Assembly (NCBI GenBank): GCA_001783145.1
Contig: MFQT01000002.1
Span: 24,941-88,940 of the forward strand
Direction: 5' to 3'
From: Candidatus Magasanikbacteria bacterium RIFOXYB2_FULL_38_10
GTDB lineage: Bacteria > Patescibacteriota > Patescibacteriia > Magasanikbacterales > UBA10003
Length of the DNA stretch: 64,000 nucleotides
Positions 3,001-49,591 of this stretch are shown here, in pieces (the stretch's first letter is position 1; each line of letters begins with the position of its first letter). Both the position numbers and the translations under genes were made by a program. The notes below the pieces were generated by a model, which worked only from the letters and a program-made list of their open reading frames with translations, had not been told where the DNA came from and searched no databases.

Positions 3001-6000
3001 ATTCAAACGCGAAGAGTTGGCTTCCGAAGGTATTTCCGCTGAAGCAAACCCGCGGCAAGATTCAGCGATTGGGCCACCGCCATTATACACTGGTTGGTTA
3101 TTGATGGCTTTTAAGCCGTTAGAAGCAACCAAATCGGCAATCTGTCGGCCGTTATAAATGGAATAGCCGCTAAAATCTTTAACAGAAAAAGCTCCATTAT
3201 TAGCAGAAACATAAGCCGAAAGATCTAAAATTTGACCAATGGCGGGTGTTTTATTTGTGTCCTCAACCCAATGACCGCATTGACCTAGAAGCTCATCACT
3301 ATTATTAACTTCGGCCGCTGAAGCAATTTTGTCGCAATTTTTAAGCTCAGTGCAGATATCAACCGAATTACCGTTTTTCAGCACTTTCATAGTGGAGGCG
3401 CAAGCAAGCCATTCGCCGCAAACACGATCCCGCTTAACTTTTAAAATTACGTTAGCATCATTGGCATCAAGATTATCATTGGTACAATTGAGATTGTCTG
3501 CTGAAGTTTTTTCACCCTCCACCCCACAATCAATCGGATTAACCTTTTGATAATTGTTTTGTTGGCTTAAATTATAAGTTGCATCAGCGTTCCACAATCT
3601 ATCGCCTTTGGCGGTTTCATTAAACAAAACGCAACCTTGTTGCAAACTGGCACTGCCACCGCAAGAACCGCGGTCAATTTTTTCATTGTTAATCACATAG
3701 TAAGATTGGCCGGATAAATTGCCGGAAGCGGTTCCCGCGCCTACCGGATCCACAAATTCCGAACAGCCATTTTGCGCGGCGGGACACAAACCCACAGCGC
3801 CATTATAGGTAGCATCTCCGTTTTTAAAAATTTTATAATTGGTGCCCGCATAACAACTGTCAGTTGTACCTTTAATCACCCAGCCACCGGTAGAGCCATT
3901 AATTTTATCTTTCCATTCGCATAAACGATTGCCAAAAACAGTCGGGTCTTTAAAATAATCAGATCCGCCTTGGTCCGTGGTGTATTGATTACAGCCTTCG
4001 GCCTCTTGGCTGCACAAAATTTTGCCATAATTATCCGGCTGATCTTTAAGATACACCGTGGTAGAGGCCTGCACAGCTCCATTCGCGGAGTAGTCAATCA
4101 AACCCAAAGCGCGACAACCTGCGTTATCACTAGAGCATTGAAAAGCGGGGCTGTTTACTAAATACACCATCCGATCAGTGGGGACTAAAATACTCTCTGA
4201 ATCAGATGATAAATTAACACCATAAGAATGACCTTCGGCATCTGTAGTTGCAGCTACGCTGTTTAAATTATGTAATTCAGGGCCTAATTCAGTTAGATTT
4301 TTACCCAAACCAACATAATTAAATCTACAAAAAGTTTGTCCCGGAAGTACATCACATTTATGCTCGCCATTTTTGTCTTTACAATCAATTACTTGGTTTG
4401 AATATGTCTGCGGCGAGGAAAGAAGAGAACACTTGGCATTAAACAGCGTAGCCGAAGTTGTTTCGGTGTCAAATGTTTCAACCAGCTCCTCGCAACCTAC
4501 TGCTTCCTCACGACAAATACTGCTAAAAAATTTAACCGCCACAGTATCTCCTTTGCGGTTGGAATAAGATTCACAGCCAAGTTGAGCCTGCGGTGCCAAT
4601 CTTAACGGATTGGCGGAATTTCCTCCCAAAGACGAGCCAAAGGGATCGCCATTAACATTGTCGCAAGATGAAGGAGTGGCCCAGGAATCCTTAATCACAT
4701 AAACGTTATCCGTCATTTGTTTTACAACAACATTATCAAGATAAAAAATGTTCCCCTGGCCGCCAAATTGCAAAGTGGAAGAAGAAACTTCTTGATCCCA
4801 AGAGACGTTAAAATCGGCAGTAAAAACCGCCCAATTATTGGTTAAATTAAAGCCCCTATTTTCTTGAGAAACAAAATTGGAGCCGGCCAAACTTGTGCCA
4901 AACTGTACTGCTAAATTTAAGGAAGCATCTTGACTCTTAGCCCAAAAAGAAATAGAAATCGTTTTATTTTTTTCTAAAATATTGGTGAAACCGGAAGCGC
5001 CAATTACTTTCAAAGATTTTCCACCGACCACGGTTGCCTCGGAACTGATTGTGGCAGTTGTCCCCGTCCAGTCCAAAGAGGAAACAGTGCTACCAACCGT
5101 GCCTGTTTCAAAATCTTGAAAATAAATGGTTTGAAAATTATTACCCGCGTTGCCTTTGTAAGCGCGGCAACCCACAGCCGTAGCCGGACAAGACTTGGCC
5201 TCCAAAGAAATAAATGAGTGGATACAAATTCCTCTCGCCGAATCCCAAGCTCCGCCGGTAGCATCACAAGAGATTTGATCGGACAGACTTTTGCGATAAT
5301 TTTTGCATTCGCTTGGAGAAACTGTGACGGTTTTAGAATAAAGGCGATAAGATTTTTCACCCTGACGATTATAAAATTCGCGACAATCCGGATCAAAATC
5401 TTTGCCTAAGGTAATTTTATCCGCGTAAGTACTGGCACTACAAATATTTTCATAAAAAGTAAGTGTCAAAGCATCGCCGGTATTATAGGCCGGCTCGCCG
5501 GTATGGCCACTTCTGGTATCTTTCTTTAAAATGTATGTTTTTAATTGATAACCGGAAGTATCACTTCCCTCCCAAGTATAAAAAGTGTCTCCTTCGGCGG
5601 CAATTTTACTGCAAGATTTTATCTGGCTAAAATAAGCTTTTTGTTCTCCGCCAGCCGCTTGAGTTTCTATATTAACAAATTCTTCGCAACCTACGTTTTC
5701 CAATTTGCACGATTTGGCGTTGGCAGGGATAAAATAAGCATTGGCATTGCCAGAAAATTGAGTAATTGGCTGTTCTATATATGTTTCATAGCCAACGCAC
5801 TCATTTGGGCATAAATCCCCTGTTGTCAAAACACCGGGAATTGTCGGATTGCCATTTGACGGAGTGTAAAGCTCGCAACTTTTTTCTTCTGCACTGCAAA
5901 CTGTGGCAAAACGAGAACATTGAATTTTTTGTTCCGCAGTCAATCCATTGGAAATTTTATACAAATCGGATTTATTAACCGGCCAAGCTAAAGTAGAACT

Positions 6001-8037
6001 GCTTAAAGTATTTGTATTGGGTGTACCTGTGGGGACCAAATTTTCACCATAACAATTATAAAACTCGGGCGCTTTTTTTAAATTAAGATTTTCTCCAACT
6101 ACGCCTTCAGCCTCGCGGATAAATTTAGAGCACCCTTCATTTTCATTGCCGCATCTTTCAACTGAACGATTAAAATAAATTTTAGGATCACCGGCGCCGG
6201 ATTGCCAATTCCAATCTCCGCCCAAATAAGCGGCTGAAATCGCATAAGAACGGCAACCGGAATTATCCGCCGTACAAATACCTCTATCAATGGTATTGGC
6301 TAAAAAACTCATGGCCTGACCTTGGCTACTGGCATAACCGGTACAAGTATTGAATTGTTCATCGCAACTATCGGCACCCAATTGCCAAAAATTTTTCTCT
6401 CTTAAACAATAGCCCCAAAAATTACATTGTCCGGTTTGTGAATTTTCACCAACACAACTTTGCACATCGGTGCAGGATTTGGCTCTTTGTCCGGGAGTAT
6501 CGGCCGTAGGAGGGTACAGAGCCAAGGAACTGTTAACTTCGGCGGAGCAACGGGCCTTAGGAGCGACAATCAGCCAATTAGGATCAATCAGATGATAATA
6601 TTGACTGCTACTATCATAAAAACCGGCCACCACATCTTTTAAAAATACTTTTTGCCCAAGAGAGACTGCTTTCTGCGCGGCTATTTCCCAGCCCAATGAC
6701 AAAATTCTAAAAAAACGCAATTTAATAAGATTGTCATAACAGTAAGCGTTAGGTTTGCAAGATCCCTTTGGCAAAAGTTCCCAGTCTCCATGCAATTTGC
6801 CCGAAGAGAAATTTAAAGCTTCACCGACAGTTAAGGGGGTTCCCGCTTGGGCTAAAGATAAAATTTCTTGAAAATCGGAATCCAGGGCACCACAATAGGG
6901 GCCGTTGTTGGTAGCGCAATCGGGGGTCAATTCTGTAGCCACATATTGATAATCCCCAATTTCGCCAAAGGTGGGTTTAACAAAATCGGCAAAGGTGGCT
7001 TCGGACGCCTCGCGATTACCCACCACCTGCGCCTGCTCATCATTGGGCGCTGATTTTTTACAAGTCCAAGAACCGTCTTTTACGCCGCAGGCTATCCCGG
7101 TGATTAATTGTCCCACAGAAAGCAAGCCTTTTTTTCTTAATTGCTCTGCCAATTGATCGGAAAGAGTGTTGGTGAACATAGCGGCGGCATCGCCCAAAAC
7201 ACCAGCGATGTTGCCCAGATTTAAATCATCTTTTGTGGCTTTTACTTCTTCGGTTTTTTGTGTTTTTGAATCACTTATAACGCTTTTTGCTTGTTCTTCG
7301 TTAACAGCTACAGGAGCCGTCGCATCACCCCCTACCGGAGAGGCCGTATTTTTCATACTACCATCAGAGTCGGCTTTATCTCGAGCTTTTTGTTCATCTT
7401 CGGCCCGTATTTTATCCAAAGCTTCCAATGTTTCTAAAGATAAAGACAGGCCATTTTGCCCCGGCTGAAAAGACATTCCCACCTGGCTCCAAGCACCGGC
7501 TGTACCCAAATTACTATAGGCATTTTGTATTTCTCTCCAATTACAACGCGGCTGAGGATCCAGGGTGTTGTACATTTTTAATTTTATTCCCAAATTATAG
7601 GCAGGTATGCCGGGATTACACAAATTAATGCCGTATTTTTGTAAAAATTGCGTTTCATCGCCAAAATAGCCAATAGCATCGGCTGCTGCCTGCAAACCGG
7701 CGTTTTCAAAATAACCGGCCGCGTCAGTGTACCACATCGGCCCCTTGTCATAGTTGCCGCTGGCCAGCCAAATGGCTGTGTCCCTGGACATTTTATTGAC
7801 AAAATTCCTAAAAGACTTCATTAAAGCCCTGCCTGCCGCTTGGCCAATATTTACTTTTAAATCTTTACCGATAGCAGTTATTTTAGTCCACAAACCAGTA
7901 GCATCAGCCACGGGATCCGTCACTGTAAACTGCGCTCTAGCCGACCACGGCATTCCCAAACTTCCAATCAATACAAAAAATAAAAAAAATATTGCAATTT
8001 TATTTTTGTGATTTTTTATTTTTTCTTGGCGCGTCAT
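1..8037 (-). CDS. giant secreted cysteine-rich surface protein, N-terminal >2678 aa (3' end of gene lies beyond position 1)
   Basis: ATG at 8037 (revcomp of cat 8035-8037), 7 nt downstream of the stop of the co-oriented upstream gene. Manual translation of the minus frame (codon high coordinate = 0 mod 3) stays open to position 1. No ORF >130 aa exists in any other frame across 8 kb. N-terminus MTRQEKIKNHKNKIAIFFLFFVLIGSLGMPWSARAQ is a signal/anchor. The body is G/N/S/T-rich with recurrent Cys pairs. A jelly-roll CBM4_9-like segment (YFQDFETGTVGS...GGKSLKV...FYLDNVVVKQ) lies at about 4700-5140. Confidence 0.8.
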   Translation of the reverse strand, partial: MTRQEKIKNHKNKIAIFFLFFVLIGSLGMPWSARAQFTVTDPVADATGLWTKITAIGKDLKVNIGQAAGRALMKSFRNFVNKMSRDTAIWLASGNYDKGPMWYTDAAGYFENAGLQAAADAIGYFGDETQFLQKYGINLCNPGIPAYNLGIKLKMYNTLDPQPRCNWREIQNAYSNLGTAGAWSQVGMSFQPGQNGLSLSLETLEALDKIRAEDEQKARDKADSDGSMKNTASPVGGDATAPVAVNEEQAKSVISDSKTQKTEEVKATKDDLNLGNIAGVLGDAAAMFTNTLSDQLAEQLRKKGLLSVGQLITGIACGVKDGSWTCKKSAPNDEQAQVVGNREASEATFADFVKPTFGEIGDYQYVATELTPDCATNNGPYCGALDSDFQEILSLAQAGTPLTVGEALNFSSGKLHGDWELLPKGSCKPNAYCYDNLIKLRFFRILSLGWEIAAQKAVSLGQKVFLKDVVAGFYDSSSQYYHLIDPNWLIVAPKARCSAEVNSSLALYPPTADTPGQRAKSCTDVQSCVGENSQTGQCNFWGYCLREKNFWQLGADSCDEQFNTCTGYASSQGQAMSFLANTIDRGICTADNSGCRSYAISAAYLGGDWNWQSGAGDPKIYFNRSVERCGNENEGCSKFIREAEGVVGENLNLKKAPEFYNCYGENLVPTGTPNTNTLSSSTLAWPVNKSDLYKISNGLTAEQKIQCSRFATVCSAEEKSCELYTPSNGNPTIPGVLTTGDLCPNECVGYETYIEQPITQFSGNANAYFIPANAKSCKLENVGCEEFVNIETQAAGGEQKAYFSQIKSCSKIAAEGDTFYTWEGSDTSGYQLKTYILKKDTRSGHTGEPAYNTGDALTLTFYENICSASTYADKITLGKDFDPDCREFYNRQGEKSYRLYSKTVTVSPSECKNYRKSLSDQISCDATGGAWDSARGICIHSFISLEAKSCPATAVGCRAYKGNAGNNFQTIYFQDFETGTVGSTVSSLDWTGTTATISSEATVVGGKSLKVIGASGFTNILEKNKTISISFWAKSQDASLNLAVQFGTSLAGSNFVSQENRGFNLTNNWAVFTADFNVSWDQEVSSSTLQFGGQGNIFYLDNVVVKQMTDNVYVIKDSWATPSSCDNVNGDPFGSSLGGNSANPLRLAPQAQLGCESYSNRKGDTVAVKFFSSICREEAVGCEELVETFDTETTSATLFNAKCSLLSSPQTYSNQVIDCKDKNGEHKCDVLPGQTFCRFNYVGLGKNLTELGPELHNLNSVAATTDAEGHSYGVNLSSDSESILVPTDRMVYLVNSPAFQCSSDNAGCRALGLIDYSANGAVQASTTVYLKDQPDNYGKILCSQEAEGCNQYTTDQGGSDYFKDPTVFGNRLCEWKDKINGSTGGWVIKGTTDSCYAGTNYKIFKNGDATYNGAVGLCPAAQNGCSEFVDPVGAGTASGNLSGQSYYVINNEKIDRGSCGGSASLQQGCVLFNETAKGDRLWNADATYNLSQQNNYQKVNPIDCGVEGEKTSADNLNCTNDNLDANDANVILKVKRDRVCGEWLACASTMKVLKNGNSVDICTELKNCDKIASAAEVNNSDELLGQCGHWVEDTNKTPAIGQILDLSAYVSANNGAFSVKDFSGYSIYNGRQIADLVASNGLKAINNQPVYNGGGPIAESCRGFASAEIPSEANSSRLNPSLYPDFCSFAKVEYGGSDKAAITKYYLANQLLENKGVCDGGFLENGQSKKSLPCVDVSDCSDDRPANQKPGGITLGASCLTDRKISREFGWNGYCLLKDSTDKCVMWYPLAVPKGGVDLYALNREAGYYPPEGSGKFWCVQAKGNASLPFQDNGDTFGYGSSYKLITRAEPKNTWETSGRGRCFSSNGTEISNINTEEECKNSKSWVPFTADLWKEQTFFLTSVEKDLNFSEVVAMGLTPLSFINGKDYPANELLTFTKQKLNGVSNGDGYYWSGTKLENNGDISLEFFWHNGPDNRTEGSFNFLTQSKCENFYDNTDSNAIAFRVTFDKTTGKLKSMNSKTCDGSTQSGGFKAELDFYLTEVCTDIRQVVQDNPVNPDVQSSVFGFKAKARTDRIWQEGRYILGGDDNGKEMKLPFNQFFTPFGSFDQSQDPKDLTLIDNSKTNWDKLQSWYVAGYWPIWLKSGGATPLNCSPDNGGDCGKAALCSAGPNVNQPCNMADNKNEGNLACNEQVDDGTCKPSASLDKKVCAGETDSGKNLLQMIEPAIDCSNFDSAWCLDRVSSHGFAECIAGVCYGTPLSSLYKWSCSEDGDCIPDNVSCQNISGTCQGGSKNGSYCSVDDDCQGGVVKYLCDDANQIRGLCVGGLNHGLMCGSSKDCPPKTYGDTVGMEVVEQGTCVGISLEQGKTIPQTIGDSGPSTPNIGDHSQPNAAFLRLQELFASSFNTWAWNENKYELLGSGWSNRDKSQGDSGATQTINNLSAAITPHPPKIYSLNPAGNNSFTWGTVNMFSLNFNNGYVDNQDITYNGSSPVVTAAFYAYADNDQMPITRVAIDWGDGSVYESRGWYKNHKPVCESSDEKVCDSNLNKPCNSNADCGSGISCSSPSSPNDRLHFGNSAEACEEGYFTYKHVYECLANNGLSLPVCSANVITNCWDNINSQCHFKPKVQVLDNWGWCNGTCAVVIGGCWDDPAKEDDFRACSIDNKSVIEHWTSFSNKVII

Positions 8038-8044
8038 AGCCAAA

Positions 8045-8779
8045 TTATAACTGTTTAATTAAATCAAGCAAAGCCTGATCGTCTAAACCATCTAAGGTCT
8101 CTTTAGGAATACCTTTTTCTAATAAGCTTTTGCGCAAAGCTTTTAAATCCACATTACTAATATCTAAAGAAAAATCCGATGATTCTGAATTATTAGCCGC
8201 CGTAGATGTGGAAGAGACAAATTCTTTAAAAAAAGCCAACAAATCGTTATCGGAAAATTTTTCCAATTCTTTGGAATCTATTCCATTCTGAATTAAGAAA
8301 TCGCGCAAAACTTTAGGGTCGGGATTAGAACCCAAAAGATTCTGTAAAAGTATCTGATCGGCGGTCGGCAACTCTGAAACGGATATCTCCAAGGAAGAGG
8401 TGGCTGTATTAGCGGCCGCTTGATTTTGCACTAAACTGCCATAACAATCTTGTCCTTTGGGACAATTGGGATCACTGCCGGAATCGGCTTCCGTTTTATC
8501 ATTTAATCCATCGGAATCGGTATCTGTTAAATAAGGGCTGGTTTGATAAATATATAACTCGTCATAATCTTTTAAGCCGTCGGCATCCGTGTCTTTTTTC
8601 TTTAGTTCTTCATTGGCAAAATTTTGATCAAAAGATATTTGTTCGCCGACGGAATGTTGCAAAGCAAAAAGCGCAAAGGGAGTTTTTAAATTGTTGCCCA
8701 TTTGCCTAAAACCTAAATAAACAACAAAGACCGCCAAAACAACCAAACCCAAAAAGGCCAGTTTTTCTTTTCTTGTCAT
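8045..8779 (-). CDS. membrane-anchored calcium-binding protein with thrombospondin type-3-like DxDxDG repeats
   Basis: The ORF-track start at 8833 is TTG. Internal ATG at 8779 is preceded by GGAGAG and gives MTRKEKLAFLGLVVLAVFVVYLG, a TM anchor. Repeats DTDADGLKDYDE and DTDSDGLNDKTEADSGSD lie at about 8468-8593. The stop is 7 nt from the giant gene start. Confidence 0.6.
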   Translation of the reverse strand: MTRKEKLAFLGLVVLAVFVVYLGFRQMGNNLKTPFALFALQHSVGEQISFDQNFANEELKKKDTDADGLKDYDELYIYQTSPYLTDTDSDGLNDKTEADSGSDPNCPKGQDCYGSLVQNQAAANTATSSLEISVSELPTADQILLQNLLGSNPDPKVLRDFLIQNGIDSKELEKFSDNDLLAFFKEFVSSTSTAANNSESSDFSLDISNVDLKALRKSLLEKGIPKETLDGLDDQALLDLIKQL

Positions 8780-14041: not shown

Positions 14042-16390
14042 TCATCCTTTAATTTTATCTACTAAATTATCTCTATAATAAGCACGGAGGCGGCAGATTT
14101 TGGAACAATTTTTAACTAAACAGCGTTTGTTTTCTAAATTGGCACTCCGCCACAATTCTTCTGGTGCCTTATCTTTCAAAGAAGCGAAAGTAATTCCGGT
14201 TTTATAGCAAAAAAACGGACGGCCCGCAGGATCAAAATTAAAAGTGCGATAAGCCAAGTGGCAAGGCCAAGCCACAGTTTTACCGGGATTTAAAAAATAT
14301 TCTTCAAAAGATAACAAATTTTTAACCGAGTTGGTAATTAAAGCGCCATTTCTTTTTTGTTTAATAAGCCAATTAAAAAAATCTTTTACGGCCTCTGGCT
14401 TTTGCGGCCATAAGGGATCATTTATAAACCAATTCTCCTGCGCGTAATCGCCCTTAAAATTTTCATCCAAAGCTTGGATGTTAACAAAAAAACCATTGGC
14501 CCGGGCAAAACTGACTAATTTTTTAGCATCTTCCCCTATATTTTTTTCATTGAGCAAGACCCCCAAACAAATTTTCATTTGGCTCCCCTGTCTTTGTTTG
14601 GCCTCGGCCAAATCAAGAATCGCTTCCTTGGCTTTTTCGTGAGCCCAAGGAATCTGCCGCAGGCTATTATGAATTGCCGGATCAAAACTGTATAAAGAAA
14701 TTCTAATTTCTTCAATTCCCGTAGCTACAATTTTGGCCGCCATTTCTTTATTAATCAAATAACCATTACTTTCCAAAATAACTCTAAAATCATTGATCTT
14801 TAAAAAATTTAAAATCTCCAGAATGTCCGGCCTAATCAAAGGCTCTCCTCCGCCCAGACTAATTAAATAGCCCGGACCAACCCATTTTCTTAAATCACTG
14901 ATGATTTTTTTCCATTCTACCGTGTTTAACTCATTTCTTTCCGCACATTTCCAGATATCACAGTGACTACACCTAAAATTGCAATTATAAGTGATGATTA
15001 AATCGCTACCCTTGGGTTTAGAAAGCGGGAAATTAAAAAAATAAGACAATTTTTCTAAAATAGAATTAAAGATTTTTTTAAAATAATTATTTTTCATAAA
15101 ATCAGACGGTTCACCCAAGACACCTTCTCCCCCAAAATTCCACACCCCCAATCCTAAAGCCAACAGCATCAAACCGCTAAAAGAACTCCATAAATAATGA
15201 TCAAACAAACTTAAAATTAAAAAAAACAATAAAATTTCTCCGCCTAATTTATTTTTCTTTAATAAAAAAAACAAAAAAATAATCAATAAAATAGTTCCTG
15301 TGATTCCTAGTTCTATAAAAACCAAAACTAAAGCATTGTGTACGGGCTGGTAACCGCTGGTTTTGTCAATTAAAGAAAACTTTTGAGCGGCAACCAGGGT
15401 ATAGTTTCCCAAACCCGTCCCCCAAAAGATATTATTTTTAAAAATTTGATAAGATTCCGTGTAGCCATTTAATCTTTGGATTTTAGACCACTCTTCCAGT
15501 TGTCCGGTAACTTCTACCCTATTTCTTAAAAGAGGCAGAAAGATTACAGAAAGAAGCGCTAAAAAAATTAAACTAAAACTGAAATTCAAAATTAAACGCC
15601 GACGGATAAAAGGAGAAAAATTTTTTTTTATCACTCTAAAAAACCAAAAAAATAAAGACACGGCCAGGGCCAGCCAGGCCGAGCGGGAAAAAGAAAAAAA
15701 TAAAGCGGCAAGAAAAATAAAATTAAAAAATAATATTCCGGCACCACTTTTTTTAAATACCCCGACAACATCATTCCTTTCTTTAATTAAAAGAAAACAG
15801 ATTATTAGGCCAAGTGCCAGGAAAGCGCCCAGAGCATTGGGGTGGGTAAAAGTACCATAGGCTCTAAGCCAGCGTCCGCCATTTTCTAAAACTGCCGTGC
15901 CTAAAGTTCCGGAATGATGCACAGTTAAACCCAAATAGCGGCTGGCAAAAGTATTTTGAGATAAAAATTGATAGATGCCCAAAAAGGCCGCCGGAAGTAG
16001 ACCTAAGACAAAACAATAAGCGGCTTTTAAATTATTAATAGCTCCACTACTGAGCAAAATAAAGAAAGCCCCAGCTTCTAAAAGATGCAAAGCTTGTTGA
16101 AAAAAAACCAATTTATCACCGGAAACAATACCGGAAACAAATAATAAAATTGCCAAAGCTGAAATTGGTACTCGATTATTTTTTAAAAAACCTAACCAAT
16201 TATTTTTTTTCCTCTTATTTAAAATTCCTGCCAACAAAATCAACCACAACAAAACTTCCTCGGCATAAATGCCTATAATGCCATACTCCCAAACAGCCCC
16301 ATTTAAAAAACCGCGGCGCAAAATGAGCCTGGTTTGCCAAGGCAGTAAAAATATAAAAAGATAAATTAAAAAATTATAGAGCTTGGTCAT
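14042..16390 (-). CDS. fusion protein: O-antigen ligase-like (Wzy_C) polytopic membrane domain + C-terminal radical SAM / SPASM-like domain
   Basis: The N-terminal roughly 440 aa have more than 10 TM helices with Wzy_C-type motifs (SRSAWLAL; HPNALGAFL; HNALVLVFIELGITG). The C-terminus carries CNFRCSHC (CX3CX2C), the LGGGEPL SAM-binding glycine motif, and C-terminal Cys clusters (FFCYKTG...CLVKNCSKIC). Confidence 0.7.
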   Translation of the reverse strand: MTKLYNFLIYLFIFLLPWQTRLILRRGFLNGAVWEYGIIGIYAEEVLLWLILLAGILNKRKKNNWLGFLKNNRVPISALAILLFVSGIVSGDKLVFFQQALHLLEAGAFFILLSSGAINNLKAAYCFVLGLLPAAFLGIYQFLSQNTFASRYLGLTVHHSGTLGTAVLENGGRWLRAYGTFTHPNALGAFLALGLIICFLLIKERNDVVGVFKKSGAGILFFNFIFLAALFFSFSRSAWLALAVSLFFWFFRVIKKNFSPFIRRRLILNFSFSLIFLALLSVIFLPLLRNRVEVTGQLEEWSKIQRLNGYTESYQIFKNNIFWGTGLGNYTLVAAQKFSLIDKTSGYQPVHNALVLVFIELGITGTILLIIFLFFLLKKNKLGGEILLFFLILSLFDHYLWSSFSGLMLLALGLGVWNFGGEGVLGEPSDFMKNNYFKKIFNSILEKLSYFFNFPLSKPKGSDLIITYNCNFRCSHCDIWKCAERNELNTVEWKKIISDLRKWVGPGYLISLGGGEPLIRPDILEILNFLKINDFRVILESNGYLINKEMAAKIVATGIEEIRISLYSFDPAIHNSLRQIPWAHEKAKEAILDLAEAKQRQGSQMKICLGVLLNEKNIGEDAKKLVSFARANGFFVNIQALDENFKGDYAQENWFINDPLWPQKPEAVKDFFNWLIKQKRNGALITNSVKNLLSFEEYFLNPGKTVAWPCHLAYRTFNFDPAGRPFFCYKTGITFASLKDKAPEELWRSANLENKRCLVKNCSKICRLRAYYRDNLVDKIKG

Positions 16391-27243: not shown

Positions 27244-28326
27244 TTAATGAATGTAAAGCGTGCGCAGTTTTTCCGCGATGGCCATTTCACTCTGCGGGAA
27301 AGGTTGATGGGCAATGCCATTCAACGCACCCTGTTTCAAAAGATATTGCGACACTGGCGGGTCAATACTCTTAATGTTGTGCTTGGTAGATAAAACTGAT
27401 GCTGACAAGATGCAACCAAGCATACAACCATAAGTGGTTCTCCCGTTATTTTCATCTTGACCCATACCGAGATCAACACCTATACCCCTAGGTGCAATGG
27501 CCTTAGGCAAAACCCCGCAACCCACAGGCAGAATGGAAACAGGCCAGCCAAGAAAGTCCTCCTCTCTGACGGCTGGCGGAATACAAGCATCCAAGACAAA
27601 AGCAGCCGGTGTTACATGTTCTGGCAGAATCCTGCTCTCAGGAGAAGAGTGAGCGGTAAAAATCAACTCACAGCCACCCTGACGCAAGGCAGTGAAATCC
27701 TTGGAAATGGTTACCAAAAGAAGCTGATTAATCCTTTGCAAATCATCTACCAGTCCTGTCACTTTTGGATCTTCAGGATCTCTTACTACCAGAACCATGC
27801 TGTTAACTTCGCTCGCCATGAGCCTGGCAAAACCAGCGCCCATGAGTCCAGCGGCGCCTACGATACCAAGACAAACCCTTTGCAAAGGCAAGCCCAGATT
27901 ACCCAGTTTCTTGGCGGCACTGTAAGCCAAAGCCATGCTCATGTCATCACCATGATCAAGCCTCAGACCCAACTGATCCGCCTCTTCCACCAAATCCTGT
28001 CCGCTGTGAGAAACCGAAGCCACCAGCGAACCCAGACCAATATCGGTTGCGCCAACTTTCTTGGCGGCACGCATGGCGCGCTTGATCAAATCTAGTGATT
28101 CTTCGCGATAGCGCAAAAACTGCAAAGGCCGCCTGTCAATAAGAAGAATCTGGAAATCCACCCCCAAAATTTCTGTCTTAGGGGACCACCAGAAAAACCC
28201 ATCTCTTTCGGCTTGCTCTTTCATTTTCATCGTCATCTGAGCAAGCTGAATATCGGTATTGTGAGGCTCTTCACGGAGCTGAGACAAAAACACCACAAAT
28301 CTCTTGGTAACTGGTGCAGTTTCCAT
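27244..28326 (-). CDS. Rossmann-fold NAD(P)-binding dehydrogenase-like protein (OCD/shikimate-DH-like), GC-rich (about 50%)
   Basis: Internal GxGxxG-type loop LGIVGAAGLMGAGFARL followed by VLVVRDPEDPK. Strong SD AGGGAGG 5 nt before the ATG. Flanked by its own promoter-like TTGACA and terminator. Confidence 0.5.
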   Translation of the reverse strand: METAPVTKRFVVFLSQLREEPHNTDIQLAQMTMKMKEQAERDGFFWWSPKTEILGVDFQILLIDRRPLQFLRYREESLDLIKRAMRAAKKVGATDIGLGSLVASVSHSGQDLVEEADQLGLRLDHGDDMSMALAYSAAKKLGNLGLPLQRVCLGIVGAAGLMGAGFARLMASEVNSMVLVVRDPEDPKVTGLVDDLQRINQLLLVTISKDFTALRQGGCELIFTAHSSPESRILPEHVTPAAFVLDACIPPAVREEDFLGWPVSILPVGCGVLPKAIAPRGIGVDLGMGQDENNGRTTYGCMLGCILSASVLSTKHNIKSIDPPVSQYLLKQGALNGIAHQPFPQSEMAIAEKLRTLYIH

Positions 28327-37742: not shown

Positions 37743-37818
37743 TGGTGCGCCTGGATGGATTTGAACCATCGACCCTGCGATTATAAGTCGCATGCTCTAA
37801 CCACTGAGCTACAGGCGC
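37743..37818 (-). tRNA. Ile-type tRNA with genomically encoded UAU anticodon (tRNA-Ile2-like), CCA encoded
   Basis: GCGCCTGTAGCTCAGTGGTTAGAGCATGCGACTTATAATCGCAGGGTCGATGGTTCAAATCCATCCAGGCGCACCA. Near-identical scaffold to bacterial ileX (LAU), but position 34 is T, not C. Confidence 0.75.
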
Positions 37819-37822
37819 AAAA

Positions 37823-38482
37823 TTAATGAATTGAACTCAAAACTTTAATTTGCATCAAAATTTTCTCTTTCAATGTTACTCGATTAAACATGATTGTGCA
37901 AGTACCATGGCCAAATCCTCCTTTATGATTAATGCGCTTACTAATATTTTTTTTAATATAAGGCTTAATAAATTGATCTGATGATATTTTAAGATATTCA
38001 GACCAAAAATCAATTTCTTCCTTAATATTCATGTCGGGGTAAAGTTGTAAACCAATCCGTAAATCAGTTCTAGAAATTTTGTGAATATCAGTTAGCCATT
38101 TAATAAAAAATTTTAAAATATTAGGATCCGTATTAGCTAATGCCACTCTAGACCAGTCTTGCTTTGATCCCTCGCCCCAATATAATCCCAAACCTATTAA
38201 AAATAGTTCTCTTTTATTTAAAGGTAATAATAATTCTTTTTCTCTACAAAATATTTCTTCCATTCTCTTTTTTCTTTTTTCAAACATGGTATTTCTGAAT
38301 TTTTCTATTCTATCCAAATTTTTATTTCGCAGCTCATCTATCCTCTTTTTAGACAAAGGGAGAAAATAAAGCCAGGAACTTAAAGTACTTTTAGAAACTT
38401 TAATTTCTCTTTTAATTTGAGAATAACTCAGTCCTTTTTTTCTTAAAGATAAAGCTTTTTCTCTCAATAAAATTTTGGACAT
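37823..38482 (-). CDS. HTH-domain protein with possible LAGLIDADG-like endonuclease core
   Basis: N-terminal LSYSQIKREIKVSKSTLSSW HTH; central FLIGLGLYWGEGSK resembles a single LAGLIDADG motif. Adjacent to a tRNA gene. Confidence 0.3.
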   Translation of the reverse strand: MSKILLREKALSLRKKGLSYSQIKREIKVSKSTLSSWLYFLPLSKKRIDELRNKNLDRIEKFRNTMFEKRKKRMEEIFCREKELLLPLNKRELFLIGLGLYWGEGSKQDWSRVALANTDPNILKFFIKWLTDIHKISRTDLRIGLQLYPDMNIKEEIDFWSEYLKISSDQFIKPYIKKNISKRINHKGGFGHGTCTIMFNRVTLKEKILMQIKVLSSIH

Positions 38483-40337: not shown

Positions 40338-41933
40338 TTAGTCTGCCGGAGTTACCCGCAGAATTTCTGCAATAGTTGTAAGACCTTGCTTCACCTTAGC
40401 CAAACCGGCCTGGCGCAAAGTCATCATGCCCAAACTTTTGGCCTCTTGTCTTAATTCAGCCGGCGAGAGACCACGCAAAAGAGCTTTCTTGAATTCCTCA
40501 GACATAGGCAATACTTCTTGAATTCCAACAAACCCCTTAAAACCAGTATTGCCACAAGTTCGGCAACCCCCACCCTTCTTTAATTTGAGAGTCACTAAGT
40601 CAGTTGATGTAAAACCAACAGAACTAAGACCCTCCATTGGGCTGTCATCATCTTCTCTGCAATCTTTGCAAATCCGACGCGCCAATCTTTGCGCGCAGAT
40701 CAAGGACAAAGAAGACGCCAGAATGAAGGGCGAGAAGTCCATATCAAGCAATCTGCCAACCGCAGAAGAAGCATTCTCGGTCTGGAAGGAAGAAAGAACC
40801 AGCCGCCCGGACAAAGAAGATTTGATTAGAGCTTCAATCGTTTCTCTGTCCCAAGGCGATTCCCCCACCATCATGACATTGGCACCCTGAGATTCCAAGT
40901 GCCGAATGGCTGCTTCAAGGTTGAAGCCAATTCTTGTATTTAGCTGTACCTGATTAATACCGCCAAAATCCTCCAAAATAGGGTCTTCAATCGTAAAGAT
41001 ATTCCGGTTAGGATCATTAAGTTCGGTAAGAAGAGCGTACAAAGTGGTATACCGACCGGAACCAACCGGACCGGTCACCAAAATCAAACCCGAGGATTTT
41101 TTAGCCGCCTGTGTTACTTGTTCAAGCTGAGCTGTTTCAAACCCCAGATTTTCCAAGTGCTTTCGCCCATTAGATCTATCCAGAATGTGCAGTACCACAC
41201 TTTCGCCATGAGCGACAGGCATAGTACTTACATTAAAGTCGACGTTCTTGTCCCTACCCATTACCAGTTGGATGCGGCCTTTTTGGGGCAAAAACCGATC
41301 AGTAATATCAAGATCAGCCATGATCTTGATTCTGGCAACTATGGCATCCTTCAGTTTCTGTGGAGGCCGCATAACTTCAAATAATTGACCTTCTATGCGA
41401 TAACGCACGCGAAAATTACGGGAGTAGGGCTCTATATGGATACTGGAAGCTCCGCGCTTTACCGCATCCACCAGAATCAAATTGACCAATCTGACTATTG
41501 GAACCTCTTGCGAGGATGAATACCCCATTCTTTCTTCTTCCCGATTATCAGGTTCTTCATCAGATGAATCCACGGGAAAACTACTCAAATCAACAGGAGT
41601 TTCTTCTTCAAAAGATTTCCCAAATCCAGAAGCAAGGTGTGGTGCCTCTACAAAACCAACCCTATAATATCTGTCCAAGGCTCGTTCAATTTTATCAGCA
41701 GGAATATTTGCAACTTCAACTTTATAACCAGTCAAAAACTTTATATCTTCAATGGCATCAGTATTACTAGGACCAACCATAGTGATAGTGAGGGTTTTGT
41801 CAACGATGCAAAGCGGCACGAGTTTAAACCGCAAGGCCACTTCTCGTGGTACTAAAGCCAACACATCAGATGGCACTTCATACTCATCTAGGTTGAAACC
41901 GGTAAAGAAATTAACACCAGTAGACTCGACCAT
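40338..41933 (-). CDS. GspE/PilB-family secretion ATPase homologue with degenerate catalytic motifs, GC-rich (about 48%)
   Basis: GSPII_E N-domain. Walker A is GPVGSGRYTT (K changed to R). Asp box is ESPWDRET (insertion). His box is SFQTENA (H changed to Q). Tetracysteine CKDC...CRTC is retained. RBS AGAGGT. Confidence 0.75.
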   Translation of the reverse strand: MVESTGVNFFTGFNLDEYEVPSDVLALVPREVALRFKLVPLCIVDKTLTITMVGPSNTDAIEDIKFLTGYKVEVANIPADKIERALDRYYRVGFVEAPHLASGFGKSFEEETPVDLSSFPVDSSDEEPDNREEERMGYSSSQEVPIVRLVNLILVDAVKRGASSIHIEPYSRNFRVRYRIEGQLFEVMRPPQKLKDAIVARIKIMADLDITDRFLPQKGRIQLVMGRDKNVDFNVSTMPVAHGESVVLHILDRSNGRKHLENLGFETAQLEQVTQAAKKSSGLILVTGPVGSGRYTTLYALLTELNDPNRNIFTIEDPILEDFGGINQVQLNTRIGFNLEAAIRHLESQGANVMMVGESPWDRETIEALIKSSLSGRLVLSSFQTENASSAVGRLLDMDFSPFILASSLSLICAQRLARRICKDCREDDDSPMEGLSSVGFTSTDLVTLKLKKGGGCRTCGNTGFKGFVGIQEVLPMSEEFKKALLRGLSPAELRQEAKSLGMMTLRQAGLAKVKQGLTTIAEILRVTPAD

Positions 41934-42080
41934 GTTTCTTACCTCTTATTGTAAAGGATCTTATATTTACACCCTACCAATTTATTATCATTTAGTCAAT
42001 GCCCAAACATTGACAAAATCACCTCAAAATGCTAGGGTAAAAATGATGGAAAGCAATTAACAACAAAGGAAGAAAGTACC

Positions 42081-42350
42081 ATGGCTACGCTGAAGGGAAC
42101 ATCTCTAAGCTTTAGTGGCTTAACTTTCGCGCAGATCGGCGAAAAAATCGTCGAGGCGTCTGGTTCTGATGACGGCAAGGATATCCTCCTTACGCTGACA
42201 GAAGGAGAGGAGCAGGGTTTCTGCGCAGTCGTCGGATTGAGAGTCGGCTGGGCCATTGCCACTCTGGTTTCTGATGCTATCGAAAAGAAAACTGGCCACA
42301 AACCCGAAGCATTCCCCTATCGGTACAGCAACCTCGTCTTTGAAACGTAA
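42081..42350 (+). CDS. small GC-rich hypothetical protein (possibly Roadblock/LC7-like)
   Basis: AAGGAAG RBS; 89 aa; GFCAVVGLRVGWAIATLVSD. Divergent from the PilB-like gene within the same GC-rich patch. Confidence 0.4.
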   Translation: MATLKGTSLSFSGLTFAQIGEKIVEASGSDDGKDILLTLTEGEEQGFCAVVGLRVGWAIATLVSDAIEKKTGHKPEAFPYRYSNLVFET

Positions 42351-42448
42351 CCAAGCTGGTGAAATTGCCCGGTGGTTGCAAAACTATCCGGGCTTTTATT
42401 TTACAAAAAACCCAAATCACCCTATAATCATAGATATTAAACATTACC

Positions 42449-47275: not shown

Positions 47276-48694
47276 TTACTTATTGATAAAACAACGAGTT
47301 GGATCAATTGGAAGACATAACCCCGCGTCGCTATTGTCTAAGGATGGAAATTCAGATCTTGTTAAATTAATATTACAATTAAATCCATCCTCCAAATTTT
47401 TAAGGCTAAAAAGATTTTCTTTGGGAACCAGCACTGAATTTCTTGGCGAAGAAGAATCTTTTTGATAGGACAAAGCTTTACATGACCAATATTCAAAACT
47501 ATCCGAAGGCAATAATAATTTACTTAAATTAACATTACATAAACCATTTTGTTGACCTAGGGCAAACCAATCGTCACAGCCACCTGCCGCGCCTCCCTCA
47601 TCATTTACTTCAACTCCTAAATAAAAACCCAAAACACCGCCGCTACCGCAAGTGGAATTTATTTGATTTTCCAACCGACTTTTAGTTACATTAAATTTAT
47701 ATTTTTGGGAATTGGCACCAAGATTCTCGGCGGCAATTGATTGCACGAAAAACGTATCACCGTTATTTTTACAAATACCAATTAACTCAATTTTATTATC
47801 AATATAAGGAAATGGGACATCGGTAGAAGATATTACTCCCGATAAATTTCCCTCTTGGCAAAAATAGCTATTTTCACTTTGCTTCACGCAAACCTTGGGA
47901 ACAGCAGAATTAAAATCATTGCAAGCGTGTCCCCAGCAAGTTTTATTATCGGAATTTTCCCAAAAAAACTCATGACCGCAACGCGGGCCTTGCAAAAAAC
48001 CGCTTAAAGCGGGACTGCTGGAAAAAAGGTTAGTCTGGGCATCATATTTGTAATCCCCTTCTGGAACTTCCAGAGAGCTCTTAAAACTTCCCGCAAAAGC
48101 AACCATGGTTTTTAAAGGTAAATCTTTGCAAAATTCCACAGCAAGCGCGGCAGGCCTGACCATGTAAGTTTTTGGCAGACGCAACCTAACCAAATCCGGA
48201 TTGATCGTATAAAGCAAAGTATAAGCTCCGAGAAGCAAAAGCAAACCAAAAATAGCACTGCTGATTCTAGTTTTGGCGGCCGTCACTTTTTCCGCAGAAC
48301 CGGCCGAGGTTAAATAAATAAAACCACCAATAATAATTAAAATTACGGCAATCAAGCCGCCTACGCTAAGTGCAAAAAGATATATGGTTTTTAAATAATC
48401 ACCCAAATCAGAAAATTTAATCTTACCGCCTATGGTAATTTCCGCATCGGTTTGGCCGGCTGGAATGCAATAACCTGCATTGGGGCCGCAAACATTATCC
48501 AAACCCCCCACTAGAAAATTATCAGCGGAAAACTTCCATTTATTTTCTTCAATCATGGCTTTGCAACTGCTATAAGTCCAGCACAAAGGATTAGCAACCG
48601 ATCCAGACTCGCCGGTTCCCTGCGCCAAAACTGTCGGACTGAAAAAAAATAAACCCAAAACAATCGCTACCCGGAAAATTTTTTTGGATTTCAT
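47276..48694 (-). CDS. secreted cysteine-rich protein with internal two-helix hydrophobic hairpin (VirB2/TrbC-pilin-like)
   Basis: Signal peptide [26 protein letters not shown]. Hairpin [65 protein letters not shown]-terminal roughly 280 aa are Cys-rich, like the giant protein. Confidence 0.5.
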
Positions 48695-48883: not shown

Positions 48884-49591
48884 CTACTTAATCAATTTCT
48901 CCCATTCTATTAAAGGAATGGCTCCTTCCACCTTTTGCCCATTCACAAAAAAAGTAGGTGTACCACTAATTCCTAAAGAATAGCCGTCAAACCAATCCAT
49001 TCCCACCTTTTGTTCTGCTAAGGCGCTTTCCAGGCATTTAGTAAATGATGGCACATCCAGACCAATTTGTCCAGCATAGCTCTTTAAATCTTCTAAAGTA
49101 AAGTTTTTTTGATTTAAAAAAAGCTTATCGTGATAAGCCCAAAATTTATTTTGCTTGCCGGCACAAAAAGCCGCCTCGGAAGCTTCTAATCCCCCTTTAT
49201 GAGCTTCATCTTGCAAAGGAAAATGCCTAAAAGTAAAACTCACTTGCTTGGGATATTTAGTTAAAAGCTCCCTCATAACGGAAAAAGCTTGCTTGGAAAA
49301 GGGACAGGTAAAATCGGCAAATTCCACAATTTGCAAGGTAGCGGACAAAGAACCCAGGGTTGGAGCCTCGTCATTTTTTATTTTAGTTGAGTCAAATTTT
49401 TGACTAGCCTCATTTTTATTAGGCAAATTAATTTCACTGAAATCGCCGGAGCTTAAATCTACAACTTCTCCTCTTTTAACCTTAATATAAAACTGGGTCG
49501 TAAGATAAATAAAATAAAGCAAGAATAAAGTTAAAAAAGACCCTAAGGCAATTAAAAAAAATTTTTTCATATGCTTCCAACTATTATACAC
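48884..49591 (-). CDS. membrane-anchored DsbA-like thiol:disulfide oxidoreductase
   Basis: N-terminal TM; thioredoxin CxxC (FADFTCPFSKQA); DsbA-size. Confidence 0.7.
   Translation of the reverse strand: MYNSWKHMKKFFLIALGSFLTLFLLYFIYLTTQFYIKVKRGEVVDLSSGDFSEINLPNKNEASQKFDSTKIKNDEAPTLGSLSATLQIVEFADFTCPFSKQAFSVMRELLTKYPKQVSFTFRHFPLQDEAHKGGLEASEAAFCAGKQNKFWAYHDKLFLNQKNFTLEDLKSYAGQIGLDVPSFTKCLESALAEQKVGMDWFDGYSLGISGTPTFFVNGQKVEGAIPLIEWEKLIK

Follow-up and report, generated by a model that had tools for sequence, protein, structure and literature searches.

A gene on the minus strand of a 64,000-nucleotide stretch of DNA from the genome of a tiny groundwater bacterium of Candidatus Magasanikbacteria (Patescibacteria; Candidate Phyla Radiation, CPR), hereafter the window, was found to encode a 531-aa member of the PilB/GspE family that lacks the residues for binding and hydrolysis of Mg-ATP. 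The gene is maintained under relaxed purifying selection. On balance, the protein is probably a lineage-specific pseudo-enzyme, derived from the type IVa pilus ATPase PilB and acting by binding rather than by catalysis. The same protein sequence is deposited in GenBank as KKR48939.1, KKS57275.1, and OGH86163.1 under the label 'Type IV-A pilus assembly ATPase PilB' (Candidatus Magasanikbacteria bacterium GW2011_GWA2_42_32), a label that wrongly presents it as a standard PilB. An initial annotation of the window had recognized a GspE/PilB-like pseudo-ATPase locus, possibly of horizontal origin. This recognition was strengthened by further losses in the active site (E357, R271/R286, T332), by orthologues, by purifying selection, by relatives outside the CPR, and by an empty site in a related locus; absence of activity and foreign origin are the probable rather than the observed parts of it.

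Family membership of the 531-aa protein was evident from domain models and from its predicted fold. Pfam searches returned T2SSE (PF00437; 1.5e-98, 330.3 bits at a cut-off of 24.9) and MshEN (2.2e-16), and the closest relative of solved structure by sequence was PilB of Geobacter metallireducens (3.5e-139). In an AlphaFold model, the N1 domain was ordered and the acidic linker (residues 92-143) disordered, while the core formed by the N2 domain and the C-terminal domain (N2D-CTD) was predicted with confidence. Foldseek comparison of this model with PilB structure 5tsh gave an E-value of 4e-51, 49% identity, and target-normalized TM-scores (template modeling scores) of 0.67-0.70. The T2SSE model and the N2D-CTD fold place the protein among the T2SSE/PilT-like ASCE ATPases. 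With the NCBIfam PilB equivalog model TIGR02538, the protein scored 514.4 bits, below the cut-off of 675.65. The GSPII_E N-domain that the initial annotation had reported was represented by its alpha/beta half, while the helical N-terminal part that bears the 24-residue cyclic di-GMP (c-di-GMP) motifs was missing from the alignment of the window protein. A regular-expression search for the MshEN motif RLGxx(L/V/I)(L/V/I)xxG(L/V/I/F)(L/V/I)xxxxLxxxLxxQ matched Geobacter PilB and none of the four clade members introduced below. A ribosome-binding-site-like sequence, AAGAGGT, was located approximately 8 nt 5' of the ATG start codon, as originally noted.

Residues of the active site were mapped by alignment onto the Geobacter PilB numbering of McCallum et al. 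(2017; PMC5424180). In that study, E357 in the Asp box was described as a Mg ligand, R271 and R286 as the arginine fingers, E395 as the catalytic glutamate, and H420 as a residue that touches the gamma-phosphate. According to the same study, the Walker motifs, catalytic glutamate, both arginine fingers, and Asp-box glutamate are conserved without exception among PilT-like ATPases, and the histidine of the His box is highly conserved (PMC5424180). In the window protein (Table 1), the Walker A consensus GxxGxGK[ST] was replaced by GPVGSGRY (GPVGSGRYTT in its longer form), which bore out the lysine-to-arginine substitution of the initial annotation and revealed, in addition, a tyrosine in place of the next threonine. 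The Asp-box glutamate was replaced by L320, with a glutamate directly after the box (EDPILE). Neither arginine finger was retained (R271 to N234, R286 to H249), and the His box, which reads SSFQTENA, had lost both of its histidines (H413, H420), including the histidine-to-glutamine change that had been noticed before. The stretch ESPWDRET, previously taken for an Asp box with an insertion, turned out to lie after Walker B, where it comprises the catalytic glutamate and pore loop 1; the actual Asp box is EDPIL. The catalytic glutamate itself was kept (E395 to E358, in MMVGE358). In the pore loop that follows it, SPW replaced IR, a one-residue insertion that introduces a Pro-Trp pair (P360-W361). 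R455, located at the inter-subunit interface, was unchanged, and the four cysteines of the zinc motif already reported were all present, in the best-conserved, C-terminal part of the protein. Sequencing error as a cause of these substitutions was ruled out by the identity of the 531-aa sequence across at least 10 public contigs, in addition to the three GenBank records, and by substitutions common to the orthologues.

Orthologous loci were found by walking from the flanking RluD gene, and the RluD homologues also carried the name Magasanikbacteria. A PilB-like gene lies between the genes for the CCA-adding enzyme (CCA) and RluD in L001 (RluD 92% identical to that of the window), L007 (76%, with an additional 72-aa open reading frame, ORF), L002 (76%, with a 111-aa ORF and with a PilB-like gene truncated where the contig ends), and L003 (72%). 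Gene order in these four loci was the same, L19-cmk-rluD-[gene]-CCA, and the clade was monophyletic with 98% neighbor-joining bootstrap support. Across the window, L001, L007, and L003, respectively, the residues found were N/N/N/A at R271, Y/F/Q/R at T332, L/S/A/V at E357, R/R/R/K at H413, and Q/Q/Q/P at H420, with R/R/K/R at K331 and H/R/Q/R at R286. Common to all orthologues were replacement of T332 by a residue lacking a hydroxyl group, replacement of E357 by a non-acidic residue, and the Pro-Trp pair in pore loop 1. D255 was replaced by K218 in the window protein (LPQDGRI to LPQKGRI) and by K or R in all orthologues. The Walker A motif varied from GSGRY in the window to GSGRF, GSGKQ, and, in L003, SSNEER; the L003 orthologue also lacked the N1 domain and the Gly-Glu of Walker B. 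An acidic residue at D398 or E400 was present in 4/4 clade members. Among the 101 columns that were invariant in 16 active PilBs, 34 were kept in all four clade members and 19 were altered in all four. The altered columns included R271, E357, T411, H413, and H420, and several had changed to one common new residue; K331 was altered in three of the four members. Changes that occurred once and were then fixed comprised S237A, F376L, R397P, T411S, E437S, and the invariant Pro-Trp. Loss of the catalytic residues is a direct observation. From the roles described for these residues, the protein is predicted to be catalytically inactive.

Rates of evolution indicated that the gene has been retained by selection. 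Flanking proteins of the window and L001 were 89-93% identical, with 0.04-0.07 nonsynonymous (dN) and 0.73-1.1 synonymous (dS) substitutions per site, as compared with 59-60% identity, a dN of 0.32, a dS of 1.8, and an omega (dN/dS) of 0.18 for the PilB-like proteins. When the dS of the flanks was used instead, omega of the PilB-like gene was approximately 0.4, and the excess of dN over the flanks was 2.5-7-fold in every genome pair. Regional constraint was compared with the flank dS taken as approximately 0.8. The C-terminal, zinc-containing third was the most strongly constrained part (78% identity, dN/dS 0.17); its last 131 codons had a dN of 0.15 and a dS of 0.91 relative to L001. Constraint on N2D and the ATPase core was intermediate. 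The N1 domain (44% identity to the L001 orthologue, dN 0.53; entirely missing in L003) and the near-neutral linker (37% identity, dN 0.68) were the least constrained. Neutral simulation at the observed per-lineage divergence predicted approximately 12 stop codons, and none of 2000 trials was stop-free (P < 1/2000), whereas open frames of 456-549 aa were found in four lineages. Because four lineages kept open frames where neutrality predicts about 12 stops, the gene is maintained under relaxed purifying selection. A recent pseudogene was ruled out by omega and by the stop-codon simulation.

Synonymous sites also diverged rapidly. In two independent close pairs (window 40338-41933 with L001 2174-3823, and L007 with L002), synonymous divergence was raised relative to the flanks, and identical codons at conserved residues amounted to fractions of 0.50 and 0.54, as opposed to 0.68 in the flanks. 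The C-terminal quarter, the same 131 codons, was an exception in which synonymous divergence resembled that of the flanks. A simple swap of cassettes or alleles as the source of this divergence was not favored, since the gene tree agreed with the tree of the flanks.

The site between CCA and rluD is a variable spot, and the PilB-like gene was inserted there in one Magasanikbacteria subclade, because occupancy of the site differed among loci. In addition to the occupied loci described above, L004 (RluD 73% identical) carried a GIY-YIG gene and a 110-aa ORF in place of the PilB-like gene, and in L005 and L006 (64%) the site was empty, with CCA abutting RluD. The junction looks like an insertion hotspot. 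Small ORFs at the junction were located at L002 871-1206 (-), L004 834-1166 (-), L004 412-693 (+), and L007 4478-4696 (-). They comprised a 110/111-aa family, whose members were 71% identical and lacked a family match, a 93-aa GIY-YIG nuclease, and a 72-aa Cys-rich ORF.

Searches of larger collections yielded few further members of the clade. In a 5.8-billion-protein index, P0001 (59% identity) was the single close relative. When 1.84 billion representatives were searched in full with HMMER, only P0001 and P0241 were recovered as clade members, and the one other match of this kind was a piece of the window protein itself. Matches ranked after these had intact motifs and belonged to ordinary PilBs or to tandem fusions of PilB. 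With a four-member clade profile, the 5.8-billion-protein index returned no new member, with ordinary PilBs swamping the list. The clade-specific DNA pattern GESPW..AL..LSG.LV, which among the loci examined matched only the window and L001 (used as positive controls), had 0 matches in GTDB species genomes, JGI metagenome contigs, and viral contigs. Ranked just below the pseudo-ATPase clade were proteins of approximately 1000 aa with two tandem PilB-like ATPase units (P0242-P0249, P0253, P0255, P0257, and P0262), whose composition looks CPR-like. Walker A, Walker B, and His box were canonical in both halves of most of these, including P0243-P0249; P0242 was an exception in that its first Walker A, GPTGSGTT, lacked the lysine.

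An old horizontal acquisition of the gene from a donor outside the CPR is favored, but not proven, because its nearest active relatives lie outside the CPR, the corresponding site in L005 is empty, and the locus shows a mild GC excess. The best active relatives were PilBs of Myxococcota, Deltaproteobacteria, Thermodesulfobacteriota, and Bradymonadia. Over 464 shared columns, identity was 47-51% to Myxococcota/Desulfobacterota PilBs, 36% to a PilB of Nealsonbacteria (CPR), and 30-34% to the CPR-like tandem PilBs; the phylogeny was a distance tree with long branches. GC content had initially been put at about 48% on a background of about 36%. The locus was indeed the GC-richest 2-kb stretch of the window, at about 2 standard deviations (SD 2.6%) above the mean. 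The contrast was smaller than had been claimed, with 44.8% for the PilB-like ORF and 44.7% for the interval 40338-42350 in a window of 39.3%, and only a neighboring 89-aa ORF reached 51%. The excess extended over all three codon positions of the PilB-like ORF (0.54/0.39/0.41 vs approximately 0.50/0.35/0.38). The GC-richest 1-kb block (46.9%) lay elsewhere and exceeded the PilB-like locus; it contained a 360-aa ORF without Pfam match at 27244-28326 (-).

For a protein that has lost its catalytic residues while its core, zinc domain, R455, and pore-loop acid are nevertheless under selection, binding is the likeliest way of acting. The role that the initial annotation had envisaged, that of a regulatory or structural paralogue of a secretion or pilus ATPase, may be understood in the same sense. 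No paralogue of the gene was found when approximately 30 of the longer window ORFs were compared with Pfam or read directly. In the proposed scenario, the ancestor of one Magasanikbacteria subclade would have acquired a pilB gene, probably from a non-CPR donor whose PilB resembled that of Myxococcota or Desulfobacterota, and this gene would have become inserted between the genes for the CCA-adding enzyme and RluD. The clade ancestor would then have lost the Mg-binding Asp-box glutamate, the first arginine finger, the P-loop threonine, and the His-box histidines, and gained the Pro-Trp pair in pore loop 1. The Walker A lysine and other sites may have decayed later and differently in each lineage. 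The resulting protein could no longer hydrolyze ATP by the PilB mechanism, and selection would have kept the two-domain motor core, the zinc domain, the inter-subunit R455, and the acidic pore-loop residue. Such a protein might act by docking on, or co-assembling with, components of the type IV pilus machine. Candidate partners are the cytoplasmic domains of the PilC platform, for which binding in the PilB pore has been proposed (PMC5424180), or active PilB/PilT hexamers, and the protein would thereby become a non-motor regulator, placeholder, or brake. Consistent with such a role, the features that were kept (R455, the D398/E400 acid, the zinc domain, and the Pro-Trp pair) are those that build the ring and line the pore. 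Genes for type IV pili occur widely among CPR bacteria (PMC6744442), so that pilus partners are probably present in this genome. The binding or regulatory role as a whole is what we infer from these features taken together.

A more specific version of this proposal is put forward only tentatively. The protein may represent a first bacterial case of a selectively maintained pseudo-PilB, that is, a horizontally captured non-motor ring or subunit that gates the pilus or DNA-uptake machine of an episymbiotic CPR bacterium, either because it occupies the PilC platform or because it poisons or tunes active PilB/PilT hexamers. The Pro-Trp loop would then constitute a new interaction surface, and the fast evolution, which extends to synonymous sites, would reflect ongoing conflict or co-evolution with a partner.

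Several observations weigh against a selected binding role. The N1 domain, whose counterpart in GspE mediates docking, evolved almost neutrally, as did the linker (omega approximately 0.7-0.8), and N1 is missing altogether in L003. The gene was an orphan without an operon partner: its neighbors were housekeeping genes for the CCA-adding enzyme, RluD, cytidylate kinase, L19, and UvrA, and pilC, pilM, pilT, pilin genes, and an active pilB were absent from the 64-kb window and the 10 kb to its right, as judged by Pfam or direct reading of the approximately 30 longer window ORFs and, beyond the window, of the right-hand 10 kb only. No prepilin motif was found in the same 64-kb window or in the 10 kb past its right end. 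At least one relative, L004, does without the gene and carries others at the site. L008, a 1341-bp contig (JGI 3300025095) with otherwise 100% identity to the window, lacks 35 bp between direct repeats of GTACT (41190-41224), so that the PilB-like gene is out of frame past residue 237. This contig represents either a disrupted allele from the same population or an artefact of assembly. Because of this frameshift allele and the absence of the gene from L004, the PilB-like gene is non-essential. Finally, in all collections searched the clade comprised five members, which makes the conservation statistics thin.

The same observations could be read as signs of a decaying relic, an acquired pilB that was never integrated into the pilus machine of its host and is slowly being lost, with an ORF that is still open since the loss is recent or selection weak. 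The orphan position amid housekeeping genes, the dN excess in every pair, the near-neutral N1 domain and linker, the disappearance of N1 and of the whole P-loop in L003, the absence of the gene from L004, and the frameshift allele from the same population would all fit such decay. We nevertheless regard a relic as unlikely, since frames of 456-549 aa persisted in four lineages in which neutrality predicts about 12 stops, omega was 0.18-0.4 overall and 0.17 in the C-terminal third, and many sites had changed once and then become fixed. CPR genomes are small and streamlined, which makes the retention of 1.6 kb of junk DNA improbable.

Reuse of the ring or the zinc domain as a neofunctionalized scaffold unrelated to pili, for instance in conflict or defense, or in sensing of nucleic acids or nucleotides at an accessory hotspot, is quite improbable. 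Such a role would account for the varied small accessory genes at the CCA|rluD junction of relatives (GIY-YIG, 110/111-aa, 72-aa, and 89-aa), for pilus genes not being found nearby, and for a fast rate and a raised synonymous divergence that resemble those of conflict loci. Against it, PADLOC gave no match for the window protein or the small ORFs, a weak BrxF match of the L003 orthologue (E 0.0049, 14.7 bits) was treated as chance, and no relatives were detected in the viral contigs searched. The small ORFs never co-occurred consistently with the PilB-like gene, and the kept pore-loop acid, R455, and N2D-CTD core are features of a pilus motor. It is very unlikely that the protein is still an active NTPase of unconventional chemistry, in which the P-loop arginine and another acidic residue have taken over phosphate and Mg binding: the catalytic glutamate E358 and a glycine-rich P-loop in 3/4 members, R286 in two members, and the glutamate after the Asp box of the window (EDPILE) would be compatible with such activity, but E357, R271, T332, and H420 were lost in every member in spite of the complete (E357, R271) or high (His-box histidine) conservation of these positions across PilT-like ATPases (PMC5424180), their replacements differed among orthologues (L/S/A/V; Y/F/Q/R) in a manner unlike that of a new catalytic solution, and the P-loop was missing entirely in L003.

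Upstream of the PilB-like gene, the window contained an 89-aa ORF in divergent orientation, which had originally been considered its partner and possibly Roadblock/LC7-like. The ORF exists and is probably a real, strain-specific gene, as supported by an ATG start codon, a plausible ribosome-binding site, a gene-like GC distribution over codon positions (0.54/0.43/0.56) that differed from that of an overlapping minus-strand ORF, and a hairpin followed by a T-run. It was seen in 12 contigs, and its 90% cluster had one member. No Pfam, NCBIfam, PHROG, or PADLOC match was obtained, and neither a metagenome scan nor the related loci yielded a relative. The assignment to Roadblock/LC7 was not supported, as Pfam and NCBIfam lacked a match and PDB sequences gave no credible one. 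Matches to PDB sequences involved only designed WD40/beta-propeller repeat proteins, in which no stretch passed the threshold alone, and were treated as spurious. A single-sequence structure model was of low confidence (predicted local distance difference test, pLDDT, 53), mostly helical or disordered, and too poor for a fold search. The functional pairing was not supported. The searches gave the ORF no credible relative or family match, and every related locus lacks it, so that it does not represent a conserved partner of the PilB-like gene. The ORF resides in a window-specific segment that is absent from L001, where the alignment showed a 300-bp gap (42063-42362), and that also holds, downstream of the ORF, one hairpin arm followed by the T-run. 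Apart from the same-population contig L008, no copy of this segment of approximately 345 bp was found elsewhere in the window or in related loci.

Between the two divergent reading frames, a conserved upstream region contained a perfect palindrome (41995-42014). Read by eye, it provides a hexamer resembling a -35 element for each of the two directions, followed at 17 nt by a TAGGGT: TTGACT-17-TAGGGT faces the PilB-like gene, and TTGACA-17-TAGGGT faces the 89-aa ORF. A consensus promoter scan of the region found only the weak site TTGTCA-18-AATGAT (9/12), counts of sites in promoter and terminator scans were not above those in shuffled sequences, and Rfam searches of intergenic regions gave no regulatory RNA match at E-values up to 1. 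From its conservation in L001, the palindrome could represent divergent promoters or an operator.

Table 1. Positions in the window of the PilB-like gene, its domains and motifs, and the adjoining upstream features (substitutions are from Geobacter PilB to window-protein numbering).
Feature	Position	Strand	Basis or remark
Predicted PilB-family pseudo-ATPase gene	40338..41933	-	531-aa ORF; Pfam, PDB, and fold matches
N1 domain, alpha/beta half of GSPII-E/MshEN, residues 12-91	41661..41900	-	Pfam MshEN, residues 13-91
Acidic linker, predicted disordered, residues 92-143	41505..41660	-	pLDDT ~30
N2 domain, residues ~144-270	41124..41504	-	Both arginine fingers lost; D255 to K218
Degenerate Walker A, GPVGSGRYT	41046..41072	-	K331 to R294, T332 to Y295
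Degenerate Asp box, EDPIL (canonical EDPVE)	40974..40988	-	Mg-coordinating E357 to L320
Atypical Walker B, catalytic Glu, and altered pore loop 1, GESPWDRE	40842..40877	-	Clade-invariant Pro-Trp insertion
Degenerate His box, SGRLVLSSFQTEN	40773..40811	-	T411 to S, H413 to R377, H420 to Q384
Tetracysteine zinc motif, C422, C425, C457, C460	40554..40670	-	Invariant in four clade members
Conserved upstream region with palindrome GTCAATG-N6-CATTGAC	41971..42015		Conserved in L001
Window-specific segment, ~345 bp	42020..42366		Replaces ~20 bp of L001; carries the 89-aa ORF
89-aa orphan ORF, KKR48940.1 'hypothetical protein'	42081..42350	+	ATG, AAGGAAG upstream, GC 51%

Other features of the window were observed at a distance from the PilB-like gene. 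A stop-free frame of at least 2686 codons (1-8058, -), which runs off the left end of the window and has an N-terminal signal or transmembrane segment, is predicted to encode a giant secreted or surface protein. At 14042-16390 (-), an ORF of 782 aa combined O-antigen ligase (Wzy_C) and radical SAM domains in an unusual fusion. A tRNA-Ile with anticodon UAU (37743-37818, -) represents an uncommon bacterial way of reading AUA. Between this tRNA gene and the gene for the CCA-adding enzyme lay a 219-aa ORF (37823-38482, -) without Pfam or PADLOC match, which was not found in the related loci examined; it has a helix-turn-helix-like N-terminus and a segment, LIGLGLYWGEGSK, reminiscent of LAGLIDADG homing endonucleases. 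A 472-aa ORF with a T4SS_pilin (VirB2/TrbC-like) domain (47276-48694, -) adjoined a DsbA-like oxidoreductase (48884-49591, -), and every related locus has the same pair beside uvrA.

Type IV pili are considered central to host attachment and DNA uptake in CPR/Patescibacteria. If the proposed role is correct, the protein is a candidate built-in regulator of the pilus machine, and a natural, full-length, non-catalytic PilB could show which motor surfaces matter apart from ATP turnover, such as the pore loop, the zinc domain, and the ring interfaces. Genome-based inferences on piliation that count this protein as a motor would be wrong. The very small size of the clade (five loci) limits its general importance.

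A literature search for pseudo-ATPases in connection with type IV pili gave no match, and a recent review of PilB did not mention inactive PilB paralogues. Among known systems, PilBs of Geobacter metallireducens (PDB 5TSG/5TSH/6OLJ) and Myxococcus share the N1-linker-N2D-CTD architecture of the window protein, with an identity to Geobacter PilB of approximately 49% over the N2D-CTD core (Foldseek) and of 45-47% in full-length alignments. Like these motors, the window protein keeps the zinc tetracysteine, the catalytic glutamate, R455, and an acidic pore-loop residue. Unlike them, it has replaced the Walker A lysine and threonine, the Asp-box glutamate, both arginine fingers, and both His-box histidines, carries the one-residue Pro-Trp insertion, lacks the c-di-GMP helical motifs and a surrounding pil operon, and scores below the equivalog cut-off. 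The canonical CPR PilB of Nealsonbacteria (L009), which belongs to the same family, has the same domain order, and is the active motor expected in such organisms, differs from the window protein (identity approximately 36%) by its intact GPTGCGKTTT, EDPIE, GEIRD, and HATD motifs and by the location of its gene in a pilM...pilB-pilC-pilin cluster.

The closest described precedent of a natural pseudo-ATPase in the GspE/PilB family is GspEL, a component of the eukaryotic mitochondrial system derived from the type II secretion system, whose Walker A and B motifs and Asp box have been abolished (Horvathova et al., 2021; PMC8134430). Its authors concluded that ATPase function was lost and speculated that active and inactive subunits are mixed in one hexamer (PMC8134430). 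GspEL is eukaryotic, consists of the C-terminal nucleotide-binding domain only, and is accompanied by other Gsp genes, among them an active GspE. In contrast, the window protein is bacterial (CPR), has the full-length N1, N2D, CTD, and zinc domains, and is encoded by an orphan gene. The resemblance does not imply a common origin. The type of role proposed here is exemplified by ArlH/FlaH of the archaellum, a non- or weakly hydrolyzing ATP-binding protein that regulates the PilB-family motor ArlI/FlaI by direct binding. ArlH/FlaH differs from the window protein in being RecA/KaiC-like rather than a PilB homologue and in being encoded beside its partner in the archaellum operon.

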